Assembly (NCBI GenBank): GCA_965197585.1
Contig: OZ240215.1
Coordinates: 3,232,001-3,296,000 of the forward strand
Source: Dehalococcoidia bacterium
GTDB taxonomy: Bacteria; Chloroflexota; Dehalococcoidia; Plut-88900
Length of the DNA stretch: 64,000 bases
Direction of reading: 5' to 3'
Shown here: positions 21,601-22,078 of the stretch, in pieces
Layout of the letters: each line of letters starts with the position of its first letter
How positions within the stretch are numbered: the stretch's first letter is position 1
Notes under the pieces: model-generated
Seen by the model: the letters and a program-made list of their open reading frames with translations, nothing else
Databases searched by the model: none
Told to the model about the DNA's origin: nothing
Made by a program: the position numbers and the translations under genes

Positions 21601-22078
21601 TGGCGATGGAAGACGCCTTGGATTCGTAAAACTGAAGACTCCACCACCTCTTACCAGGTGGTCGAGAGCAGGTCTTCTCTCTTGTGAGTGAGGAGGTCTG
21701 AAAAGGCCCGACGCCACTGCGCGAAGCGGGCAGGGCGCTCATTAAGCGCTCACGCGGAGGGGCCGGACCGAGCCGAGAAGTCCTCGGTGCCCCCCGTGTC
21801 TAAGTCGTTTCCGCCGTTGCTCCCGGCTCCCGGACGCTTCGGCAATGTTTAAATTACTACTCCTGTGGGGTCTACAGCTGGACCCGGCCCCCTAAGGCTG
21901 CTTTAACGCAGTACAGCCAACCCACGTGTAGGAGCCGTGCCGGACCGCTCGCCCCGGTCGAGTCCGTGCAGCAGTCGAACATATGGGATAGCGGGCCTGT
22001 AGCGTCCCCGCCCCGGGACGCCCGAACCCCCGCTGGATCGCAACAGGGGCATCGTCCAAAGAGCGTATTCCATCGCCA
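21601..22078 (+). ncRNA. Candidate large structured non-coding RNA of unknown family
   Basis: Closing helix TGGCGATGGAA/TTCCATCGCCA extended to about 20 bp, roughly ten nested helices, G-U pairs favouring the + strand, a GAAA tetraloop, and no credible ORF. Confidence 0.6.

Follow-up and report, generated by a model that had tools for sequence, protein, structure and literature searches.

A probable IS481-like cassette family carrying a structured noncoding RNA in one genus of Dehalococcoidia

A stretch of 478 nt in the genome of a Dehalococcoidia bacterium, closed by a long helix and lying downstream of a promoter, raises the question of whether it encodes a structured RNA and, if so, how that RNA came to be there. 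It belongs to the window, by which we mean the whole 64,000 nt of contig OZ240215.1 that were analyzed. The initial annotation, whose letters for 21601-22078 are accurate, took it for a stand-alone gene of ~480 nt comparable in size to OLE or ROOL. The unit proved to be larger and far from solitary: it spans ~700 nt, with a promoter, a C/A-rich leader holding an invariant AAGGAGG, a core to which the 478 nt correspond, and a C/A-rich tail, and 58 such units are dispersed through the same genome (G000). It is probable that 21353-22121 is an old copy, by now truncated at its 3' end, from a family of non-autonomous IS481-like cassettes confined to the genus, whose cargo is a promoter-driven structured noncoding RNA of ~0.7 kb; the best reading of this cargo is a new structured RNA family. 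The window copy is laid out as follows.

21353..21377, + strand: diverged 5' terminal-repeat module GGTCCCACTTGGCCAAATGTGACAC, counterpart of GATCCCGTTCACATAGAGGGGTGACA in full-length copies (upstream alignment of 58 copies; 5' repeat definition)
21385..21414, + strand: sigma-70-type promoter TTGACA-18-TATATT (11/12 matches; -35 and -10 kept in 58 copies)
21421..21601, + strand: C/A-rich 5' leader, its start at ~21421 predicted from the position of the -10 box (57-copy alignment A3; model R2)
21450..21456, + strand: Shine-Dalgarno (SD)-like AAGGAGG, not followed by a start codon (columns invariant in both A3 and A7)
21557..21567, + strand: GCCAUCUCCUC, predicted to close the leader domain by pairing over 6 bp with AAGGAGG (RNAalifold, alignments A1 and A7)
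21602..21617, + strand: closing helix P1, 5' arm
22062..22077, + strand: closing helix P1, 3' arm
21602..22077, + strand: variable core enclosed by P1; class A, cluster 6 of the 14 into which 57 cores group
21805..21985, + strand: central domain D, 181 nt (model R1; pair counts)
21813-21843, + strand: P5, within domain D
21863-21916, + strand: three-way junction P6a/P6b/P7, within domain D
21938-21970, + strand: P8, within domain D
21825..21830, + strand: P5 loop GGCUCC, proposed 5' half of a pseudoknot
21931..21936, + strand: GGAGCC between P7 and P8, proposed 3' half of the pseudoknot
22078..22121, + strand: C/A-rich, G-poor tail, ending with ACAACTGAATAA at 22110-22121 (57-copy tail listing; motif counts)

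The strong promoter and the C/A-rich flanks noted at the outset are thus both present, and folding of the plus strand of 21601-22078 reproduced the long terminal helix: in the minimum free energy (MFE) structure it comprises 11 bp, a G.A mismatch, ACGC/GCGT, and TTGGA/TCCAA. This structure reaches -220.1 kcal/mol, compared with -186.5 +/- 6.7 for shuffled sequences (z = -5.03; none of 100 shuffles equaled it). For the entire 701-nt unit the energy z is no lower than -2.94 (20 shuffles). Among the nested helices originally proposed, the hairpins GGTCT-GAAA-AGGCC, GGGCGCT/AGCGCTC, GGGGC..CTCGG..GCCCC, CGGAC/GTCCG, and GCGTCCC/GGGACGC recur in the MFE structure. CTCCTG/TAGGAG, GGGTCTA/TGGACCC, and GGCTG/CAGCC are complementary as described, but covariation backs other pairings in their place, CUGU/ACAG (P6a), GGGGUC/GGCCCC (P6b), and CUGC/GCAG (P7).

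Compensatory changes, which an RNA family was expected to show among its homologues, appear in P1, domain D, and the pseudoknot. In 57 copies P1 forms pairs at 15 positions, of which 12-14 change as a block between the core classes: A-U, C-G, G-C in class A, and G-C, U-A, C-G in class B. A sequence-only alignment of the class A cores (A4) yielded almost no consensus with RNAalifold because stems were out of register, and a covariance model was therefore used for domain D instead. Model R1 of this domain has full-length matches in every class A cluster. In alignment A6, pairing extends to 92.4% of the cells, the figure for shuffles being 69.9% (0/500 reach 92.4%), and both sides change in 29 of 36 pairs, although the rows are paralogues and the alignment was fitted to the model structure, both of which inflate pair counts; slid controls are just 30-43% paired. 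Full 6-nt complementarity of the pseudoknot is found in 14 of 34 sequences (shuffled mean 2.9, maximum 8), with two kinds of compensatory change; the halves read GACCC/GGGUC in cluster 1 and ACUCC/GGAGU in cluster 5. The AAGGAGG/CUCCU helix of the leader is invariant on both sides and for that reason offers no covariation evidence.

Could the conserved pattern reflect DNA-level repeat structure or a small protein gene rather than RNA? The minus strand of 21601-22078 also folds well (z = -4.00), so the strand is not given by energy alone, and the C-rich sequence produces long stop-free frames; a second leader type, with SD and ATG, opens frames of more than 200 codons. On the plus strand, however, the paired cells hold 61 G.U against 20 A.C, the promoter faces inward in all copies, and the compensatory changes preserve pairs, not codons. 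Orthologues of the core differ by 1- and 2-nt indels (A1 columns 359-360 and 372) and share no conserved frame, as the annotated lack of a credible open reading frame (ORF) implied; because these indels are not multiples of three, a protein-coding reading was ruled out. The AAGGAGG region is likewise judged noncoding, since its spacing to the next conserved block varies by 24, 32, 34, and 35 nt between copies. By eye, no ATG, GTG, or TTG occurs within ~15 nt after the motif. We regard an explanation without RNA as scarcely credible, and the large multi-junction structure on the plus strand stands.

Resemblance to known RNAs was sought in Rfam 15. The whole 64-kb window gave no match at gathering score, 21150-22350 searched at E<=10 gave nothing beyond chance-level E of 1-9, and 15 other copies searched at E<=0.1 returned two flanking tRNAs only, in keeping with the reported lack of a known-class signature. 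The literature, at the level of listings and abstracts, likewise held no description of the RNA family. Large RNAs such as OLE, ROOL, and GOLLD fall in a similar size class and likewise combine a multi-junction layout with support from covariation and a restricted phylogenetic range. Unlike these, the cassette RNA occurs in 23-57 copies per genome instead of one or few, has no Rfam 15 match, and rides on transposon-like units in one genus of Dehalococcoidia metagenome-assembled genomes (MAGs).

The distribution of the cassettes is dense and phylogenetically confined. In G000, blastn with the 5' module found 58 units, all with promoter and AAGGAGG; both helix arms are present in 57 of them, spaced 325-553 nt. 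The copies mix two core classes, unrelated to each other, with two leader types, and the leader alignment A3 has a mean column identity of 59% with numerous invariant columns. The cluster 6 core of the window is a single copy in its own genome and has eleven homologues across five species. Nine of 41 genomes matched in blastn, namely G000 and all eight other members of the genus; the remaining 32, which lie outside the genus, were negative. Of 12 genomes from the order, leader model R2 matched nine, each a member of the genus, with 23-57 matches per genus genome and 391 in total (up to 150 candidates being scored per genome); in a sample of the class it matched 6 of 141 genomes, and none of the 135 outside the genus. 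An exact-pattern contig scan agreed, in that all the matches listed, from 8 assemblies, are labeled "MAG: Dehalococcoidia bacterium," and viral contigs gave no leader-pattern match. The orientation of copies relative to replication in G000 shows no clean pattern. The RNA would very probably be transcribed from the cassette's own promoter. RNA-library contigs of three runs from two studies (X16 and X17; X18) cover leader and core in part at ~92-96% identity, and their summed depth is ~100-600 over leader and core versus 6-27 over flanking genes; this difference is a weak hint of expression, as contig depth cannot rank genes and the libraries may hold DNA. A fourth run (X20) and the uncovered stretches are uninformative.

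How did the units spread? The 5' repeat CCGTTCACATAGAGGGGTGACA is found in 13 G000 copies and the 3' repeat GTGTCACTAATCTACCGAACGAGTACA in 25, with both in only 12 of the 58, and these 12 measure 734-880 bp. The terminal inverted repeats of full-length units are imperfect. In the 12 complete copies the flanking 6-mers agree at 60 of 72 positions and are perfect in seven, whereas permuted pairings give 31.6 +/- 4.3 identical positions with a maximum of 52, and none of 10,000 reached 60. The window copy has no 3' terminal repeat, and its adjacent gene is convergent. Its site is occupied in G000, G001, G003, and G005 and empty in G004, G006, G007, and G008, in which 218-258 nt separate the flanking genes; in G002 the site was not located. 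[quoted passage not shown] Dispersed copies with target-site duplications, the mark of a MITE, had been named beforehand as evidence against a new RNA family, and at the level of the family this is what was found; the RNA survives its MITE-like setting because its structure is conserved across diverged subfamilies.

The ends of full-length units appear to resemble those of resident IS481-family elements, and a DDE (IS481-type) mechanism is what the cassette ends and 6-bp duplications suggest. An IS481-family transposase is resident in G000 (283.8 bits against a cut-off of 224), and another resident IS481-like IS is present in ~20 copies of ~99% identity; by eye, cassette ends match this IS at 15 of 27 positions of its terminus and ~18 of 22 of a subterminal repeat. 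We lean toward a resident IS481-family transposase moving the units in trans. No IS in G000 was found with ends closely matching those of the cassettes, and no autonomous version of the cassette was found, the search in relatives covering the 5' repeat. Two candidates for an autonomous copy were rejected, one at G000:659309, where an unrelated rve IS with different ends splits the 5' repeat from the promoter, and one at G000 3404966, a solo repeat before groES.

The position of the insertions bears on what the cassettes do. Past the 3' repeat, a TTGAC-like hexamer (at most one mismatch) follows at 5-6 nt in 18 of 25 copies, against a background of 4.5%, and in 14 of those 18 a -10-like hexamer lies 16-19 nt further on, such that full-length units lie flush against a host promoter's -35 box, both pointing the same way. 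One explanation is that the cassettes are mobile promoter and leader units, for which read-through into the host gene matters and the RNA is a cis stabilizer, a processing module, or a passenger. Contact with a co-directional -35 box in those 18 copies agrees with this, as do co-directional downstream ORFs at no fewer than 37 of the 58 copies by crude ORF calls, tRNA genes downstream of two copies, and the lack of terminator-like sites across 21000-22500. The 5' repeat module also stands alone upstream of groES-groEL, and the GTGACAC-TTGAC promoter type, free of RNA, is seen before protein genes and a tRNA; on these grounds a promoter-upstream protein-binding site could account for part of the "terminal repeat." The tail-end 11-mer ACAACTGAATA is likewise common to tails and the 16S leader, occurring 11 times in G000, eight of them in element tails and one in the 16S leader beside the 16S processing stem. 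A mobile promoter, however, has no need of a 330-550-nt core, yet this core keeps compensated helices and a covarying pseudoknot; about one-third of the copies, that of the window included, have no co-directional gene downstream, and host genes beside cassettes retain their own -35 and -10 boxes. We consider this explanation unlikely. As a side effect, the cassettes would give host genes strong promoters.

A second alternative sees a domesticated host multigene set, trans-acting ribonucleoprotein RNAs serving the cell in the way proposed for OLE or ROOL, with the transposon-like ends recording past spread only. The window copy lacks its 3' repeat and is nevertheless kept at one and the same locus in four species, identity between species is 88-95% for its central domain (flanking genes, 81-95%), promoters are near consensus, and each of the nine genus genomes carries dozens of copies. 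Against this, 23-57 diverged paralogues exceed what a host function would need, the presence of two leader types and of core classes unrelated to each other fits such a set poorly, a hybrid copy (L070) has a broken helix, the seven perfect target duplications look recent, and the family is confined to one genus. Full domestication is, in our judgment, a minority possibility.

Returning to the cassette reading, our position is that the core is a functional folded RNA, one that the element family needs for its success, because its fold has been maintained through many compensatory changes while subfamilies proliferated. A trans-acting ribonucleoprotein RNA is the form that we favor over a mere by-product, with slightly less than even confidence. 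Neighbor-gene enrichment revealed no specific partner gene: the neighbors are ordinary catabolic genes, and small clusters among them are Amidohydro_2, luciferase-like, aminotransferase, DAO, and CoA-transferase paralogues or the antisense frame of an IS. Might it serve transposition itself, aiding a transposase or recombinase in target choice or element retention, perhaps through insertion at the -35 edge? Omega-RNAs serve TnpB/IscB in this manner of association, and bridge RNAs serve IS110. The cassette RNA is encoded within the mobile unit, its fold is conserved across proliferated subfamilies, and the insertion position is strikingly precise. However, the TnpB-type domain PF07282 had no match in G000 (92% complete by markers; control matches in 8 of 14 genomes), the reverse transcriptase PF00078 was not found in G000 either, and to our knowledge IS481-type DDE transposases have no RNA requirement. 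Nine representative elements compared with seven resident IS types, sense and antisense, gave 11- to 17-nt chance matches (best E 0.09), and no variable "guide" segment matching the targets was identified. A cofactor role of this kind is very unlikely. The broader proposal of a new class of transposon-encoded RNA, in which a DDE (IS481-type) non-autonomous family needs a folded, pseudoknotted RNA for spread or retention and homes to the -35 edge, is also quite unlikely; were it correct, one-orientation homing would couple transposition to the RNA or to promoter-bound RNA polymerase, and host genes would be seeded with promoters.

The leader, stalk, and tail suggest, by analogy, how such a transcript might be handled, and G000 has genes for RNase III, Rho, and RNase J. 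STAB-SD is reportedly an SD-like stabilizer of RNA 5' ends. The cassettes are alike in that a perfect SD-like sequence lies close to the 5' end and is not followed by a start codon, in a genome that encodes RNase J and whose 16S rRNA ends in ..CACCUCCUUUC.., to which AAGGAGG is complementary; they differ in that the putative stabilizer lies in a noncoding RNA and may instead pair with a downstream CUCCU. A ribosome-binding 5' stabilizer acting against RNase J is a plausible role for the invariant AAGGAGG that falls somewhat short of likely. Work on STAB-SD (Agaisse and Lereclus 1996) is cited in the reference list of PMC7509114. The 15-bp closing helix could, again tentatively, serve as a processing stalk of the RNase III type from which the core is freed, as happens in rRNA operons, and the G-poor tail might conceivably, if doubtfully, be a Rho loading site. 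The rRNA operon shares with the cassette a long helix formed by the flanks of a structured RNA, the 11-mer ACAACUGAAUA in the 16S leader, and a similar promoter type, seen upstream of a tRNA gene. The cassette cargo, in contrast, is not rRNA. The boxA antiterminator has a consensus bound by NusB/NusE, and in this comparison only the 3' part (ACAACUGAAUA) is common to the tail and the 16S leader, leaving the boxA-like part incomplete; the 23S leader carries AAAACUGAAUAG.

Among mobile elements, Correia elements and MIC231 are examples of bacterial MITEs and MICs. The cassettes share with MITEs and MICs the lack of a transposase gene, imperfect inverted repeats, short duplications, dozens of intergenic copies, a promoter of their own, and influence on neighboring genes. 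They differ in their large size (734-880 bp), in a cargo of ~0.7-kb RNA with a multi-helix fold and pseudoknot, in the shuffling of core classes and leader types, and in insertion at the upstream edge of a -35 box in one orientation. The omega-RNA of IS200/IS605 (Rfam HEARO and IS605-orfB motifs) and the IS110 bridge RNA are also large, multicopy mobile-element RNAs with non-autonomous copies, but the cassette RNA has neither an Rfam match nor a TnpB-type gene or evident guide, and it has a consensus promoter of its own.

A large structured RNA family that has no Rfam 15 relative and is borne by DDE-type, MITE-like cassettes in a genus of uncultured Dehalococcoidia has an unusual carrier, and by our estimate (58 x ~0.75 kb in 3.43 Mb) strongly promoted noncoding RNA genes would make up ~1% of the genome. 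Precise, oriented placement at -35 boxes provides a testable rule of target choice; taken with the solo promoter remnants before groESL, a tRNA, and further genes, it suggests a rewiring of host transcription by these elements. Should the RNA be needed for mobility, RNA-dependent transposition would extend beyond TnpB/IscB and IS110.

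The sequence at 21601-22078, read directly, is as described in the initial annotation, which proposed a structured noncoding RNA of about 480 nt there. Folded alone, its + strand is closed by the terminal helix that had been proposed, and most of the hairpins listed form. This fold is better than those of dinucleotide shuffles (-220.1 compared with -186.5 +/- 6.7 kcal/mol; z = -5.03; 0 of 100 as good), and because the minus strand also reaches z = -4.00, energy leaves the strand undecided. As had been claimed, the region has a promoter upstream, near-consensus and directed towards it (TTGACA-18-TATATT, 21385-21414); no terminator-like site was found within 21000-22500. 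In line with the suggestion of a new family, nothing across the whole window matches Rfam 15 at gathering score, with chance-level matches only (E of 1 to 9) around the locus. The ORF listing gives two neighbors:

20439-21191, + strand, flanking ORF
22272-22784, - strand, flanking ORF, convergent

The source genome, G000, is a single 3.43-Mb contig (window, 3232001-3296000). A blastn query made of the helix start and the sequence before it, 246 nt in all, has 58 matches there; the final ~90 nt of the core, together with the tail, have partial recurrences, and the core's middle part has a single match. All 58 copies carry an upstream GTGACAC motif, a promoter (TTGAC, 17 to 18 nt, TAYTATATT), an invariant AAGGAGG ~30 nt past the -10, and a C/A-rich leader of ~150 nt with conserved blocks GAGGACUCAACG, AGCCCAUCCCAA, CAAGC, and CGCCAUCUCCUC, followed by GGCGAUGGAAG. 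The helix partner UUCCAUCGCC stands 325 to 553 nt 3' of GGCGAUGGAAG in 57 copies, the lone exception having a truncated leader, and is followed by a C/A-rich tail of ~45 to 65 nt terminating in CACAACUGAAUAA or CACAAUCGAAGAU. Given this anatomy, the proposed 478-nt RNA is real as a helix-closed core and is not the whole, the unit being ~700 nt. With a start predicted from the -10, ~7 nt past it, the unit would span 21421-22121; the fold of these 701 nt has z = -2.94 (20 shuffles). Contigs from RNA libraries (three runs, two studies), which cannot show transcription or level, overlap parts of the leader and core. Immediately 5' of the unit, at 21292-21370, lies a REP-like hairpin (CCCTCTCCC..GGGAGAGGG), with related hairpins beside many copies; in four RNA libraries the contig depth summed over it is very high, and many loose ends indicate that many contigs share it.

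The 57 cores form 14 clusters in two deep classes, A (clusters 1 to 7, 36 copies) and B (clusters 8 to 14, 21 copies); in G000, cluster 6 consists of the window copy alone, and one A/B hybrid copy (L070) has a broken closing helix. That helix, P1, is paired almost throughout its first 15 positions in 57 copies, and its positions 12 to 14 switch jointly between classes (A-U, C-G, and G-C in class A; G-C, U-A, and C-G in class B). Within the window-copy core type, an alignment of 11 sequences from five species (A1; orthologues and near paralogues) has a nearly invariant core center, the differences being mainly swapped hairpins, indels in loops, and a single loop insertion of 46 nt; double changes occur at only 5 of 125 predicted pairs, as the sequences are too alike. 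For the central domain, D (181 nt, 21805-21985; helices P5, P6a, P6b, P7, and P8), a covariance model was built from ten seed sequences with a structure set by comparing clusters; it matches every class A cluster over its full length (E of 1e-17 to 1e-3) and none of seven class B representatives. Standard pairs fill 92.4% of cells in the domain D alignment, compared with 69.9% in shuffles, 0 of 500 of which reach that value, and changes on both sides affect 29 of 36 pairs, figures that lean towards structure because the alignment was fitted to the model and its rows are paralogues. When partners were slid by 1 to 3 columns, pairing fell to 30 to 43%. The core fold is thus kept through compensatory changes. 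On the + strand there are 61 G.U and 20 A.C cells, an excess that agrees with the promoter direction. A candidate pseudoknot joins the P5 loop (GGCUCC) to GGAGCC between P7 and P8, with variants in cluster 1 (GACCC/GGGUC) and part of cluster 5 (ACUCC/GGAGU); full 6-nt complementarity is present in 14 of 34 sequences (shuffled mean, 2.9; maximum, 8 in 500 shuffles; cluster 2 misaligned in P5).

The 3' end of 16S rRNA has the complement of the leader AAGGAGG. A coding leader was rejected: spacing from AAGGAGG to the next block varies among copies (24, 32, 34, and 35 nt) by differences that are not multiples of three, and by eye no start codon stands behind AAGGAGG in the copies listed from G000. 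Pairing of AAGGAGG with UCUCCU is predicted to close a leader domain, both sides being invariant and hence without covariation support. By analogy, this start-codon-free AAGGAGG may act as a stabilizer of the STAB-SD kind, reportedly described by Agaisse and Lereclus in 1996, in a genome that has an RNase J gene (window 56118-57743, +; TIGR00649, 565 bits). A second leader type has the same promoter and a Shine-Dalgarno sequence plus ATG; it is found at about nine additional loci, in front of cores resembling class B:

G000:C1 near 62860, + strand, second-type unit
G000:C1 near 505610, - strand, second-type unit
G000:C1 near 684518, - strand, second-type unit
G000:C1 near 1590859, + strand, second-type unit
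G000:C1 near 2280200, + strand, second-type unit
G000:C1 near 3022084, + strand, second-type unit
G000:C1 near 3035253, - strand, second-type unit
G000:C1 near 3062928, - strand, second-type unit
G000:C1 near 3386770, - strand, second-type unit

Here AAGGAG, 4 nt, and ATG open a stop-free frame of >200 codons, whose N-terminal ~27 codons are alike among copies; it may encode a short peptide. On 15 representative loci, Rfam at E <= 0.1 found two flanking tRNA genes and nothing else.

The window-copy tail ends in an 11-mer, ACAACUGAAUA, with 11 occurrences in G000: eight in element tails, one in the 16S leader, where it adjoins the processing stem, and two elsewhere; the 23S leader carries AAAACUGAAUAG. 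This sharing of sequence hints at a common processing or antitermination signal. The rRNA genes of G000 are single and unlinked (16S, C1:680161-681758; 23S, C1:3105501-3108636, with a tRNA after its 3' flank), and both leaders have AACTGAATAG where the processing stem begins. A mini-hairpin of 22 to 25 nt (GGAACATCCGCCTCTGGAGGAC; 65 genome matches at <= 2 mismatches) occurs in leaders, tails, and one core loop (e.g., loci L027, L047, and L053, and G002b in A1 columns 485-532); it resembles a tiny insertion element and in tails is inserted at the CTGAATA end, with the motif apparently duplicated.

Evidence of mobility comes from the unit ends. A 3' module, GTGTCACTAATCTACCGAACGAGTACA, confined in G000 to these units, follows the tail in 25 copies, and its imperfect inverted repeat, CCGTTCACATAGAGGGGTGACA, precedes the promoter in 13; 12 copies have both and span 734 to 880 bp, and in the remaining copies, including that in the window, the 5' module has diverged. 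With ends set at GATCCCGTTC...GAGTACA, the two flanking 6-mers agree at 60 of 72 positions and match perfectly in 7 of 12 copies (permuted pairings, 31.6 +/- 4.3; maximum, 52 in 10,000), which we read as a 6-bp target-site duplication. G000 has 29 rve-domain and 11 DDE_Tnp_1 matches. The rve elements are of the IS481 family, one scoring 283.8 bits against a cut-off of 224 and two others having the same model as best below its cut-off. One IS481-like element, 1.06 kb long, lies at G000:C1:1679032-1680087 and in about 19 further places; these ~20 copies are ~99% identical, so its transposition is recent. By eye, the unit ends resemble one IS481-family type (a TGTAC start and 15 matching positions of 27, with ~18 of 22 matching in its subterminal repeat), and an IS481-family transposase would move the units in trans; as no insertion sequence (IS) in G000 has closely matching ends, we only infer this enzyme. 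The 1.06-kb IS adjoins copies at, e.g., 1008888, 1249316, 2681089, and 3179136, its frequent place beside RNA units reflecting that it is always within one REP type (GTCATTCC..GGAATGAC). An unrelated rve-type IS (G000:C1:659331-660640; L210:1531-2840; 423-aa ORF, own ~60-nt inverted repeats, apparent 3-bp duplication) splits the 5' repeat from the -35 of copy c660720; this insertion, too, meets a -35 box at its upstream edge.

The units were found in one genus. By blastn, 9 of 41 genomes match, these being G000 and eight other genus members (G001 to G008), and 0 of 32 outside the genus do. A leader covariance model (R2; 49 copies; <= 150 candidates scored per genome) finds matches in 9 of 12 genomes of the order, every one in the genus (57, 41, 54, 23, 53, 52, 40, 39, and 32 in G000 to G008), and in none of three from its other genera; with stricter filters on a class sample, 6 of 141 genomes match, and 0 of the 135 outside the genus. 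Among the matches listed from an exact-pattern scan of one genome per species, all are "MAG: Dehalococcoidia bacterium" (eight assemblies); viral contigs gave no match.

In G005, G003, and G001, the window unit has orthologues flanked by the same gene pair (identity, 94%, 86%, and 77%; flanks, 95%, 91%, and 81 to 83%). In G004, G006, G007, and G008 the site is empty, with the genes 218 to 258 nt apart, and in G002 the flanking genes were not found. The unit was thus inserted in the ancestor of four species and has been passed on vertically since then. As the 3' repeat is missing from this copy and its orthologues, the window copy is probably immobile. Its central domain is 88 to 95% identical across orthologues, and its core type has copies in G005 (two), G002 (two), and G003 (five). 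A rival explanation is that such units are domesticated host RNA genes.

Placement is oriented. Of the 25 copies that carry the 3' module, 18 have a TTGAC-like hexamer (<= 1 mismatch) that begins 5 to 6 nt past the end (4.5% at random genome positions), and in 14 of those 18 a -10-like hexamer lies 16 to 19 nt further; the units thus abut a host promoter's -35 box on its upstream side and point the same way. Another rival reading makes the RNA a cofactor in target choice. By crude calls, an ORF downstream is co-directional in at least 37 of 58 copies, and two copies have tRNA genes there; neighbors include no specific partner gene, those downstream being ordinary catabolic enzymes. The 5' repeat and promoter also stand without the RNA directly before groES-groEL, followed by a CIRCE operator:

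G000:C1:3404962-3405100 (L238:63-200), solo 5' repeat module fused to the groES-groEL promoter -35

The promoter type likewise precedes a tRNA and several protein genes. These solo promoters hint at a promoter-donor effect and favor a third rival, in which the units are mobile promoter and leader cassettes. The groES-groEL module is either a unit remnant or a sign that the "terminal repeat" may in part be a protein-binding site upstream of promoters. Elsewhere, the same promoter type precedes tandem repeats of about 60-nt units (G000:C1 about 1341400-1341685, -) and CAATCA-rich tandem units (G000:C1 2522238, +).

At the DNA level, the units are like MITEs or mobile insertion cassettes, differing from known MITEs in two ways: the RNA they carry is large and has a conserved fold, and they are placed against -35 boxes in one orientation. 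Among structured RNAs encoded by transposons, the product would be like omega-RNAs and bridge RNAs; with no Rfam match and no TnpB-type domain found in G000, where reverse transcriptase was likewise not found, it is a member of neither family. No description of it was found in the literature at the title and abstract level. Transcription of each unit would start at its own promoter, Rho may load at the G-poor tail, and the closing helix of >= 15 bp may, by analogy with rRNA operons, be a processing stalk for RNase III, whose gene is in the genome, freeing the core. Because the fold is preserved by compensatory changes while subfamilies proliferate, we think that the RNA is needed for the element family's own success, the core being more probably a trans-acting ribonucleoprotein RNA than a by-product. 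Were transposition or targeting to depend on the RNA, the system would be categorically new.
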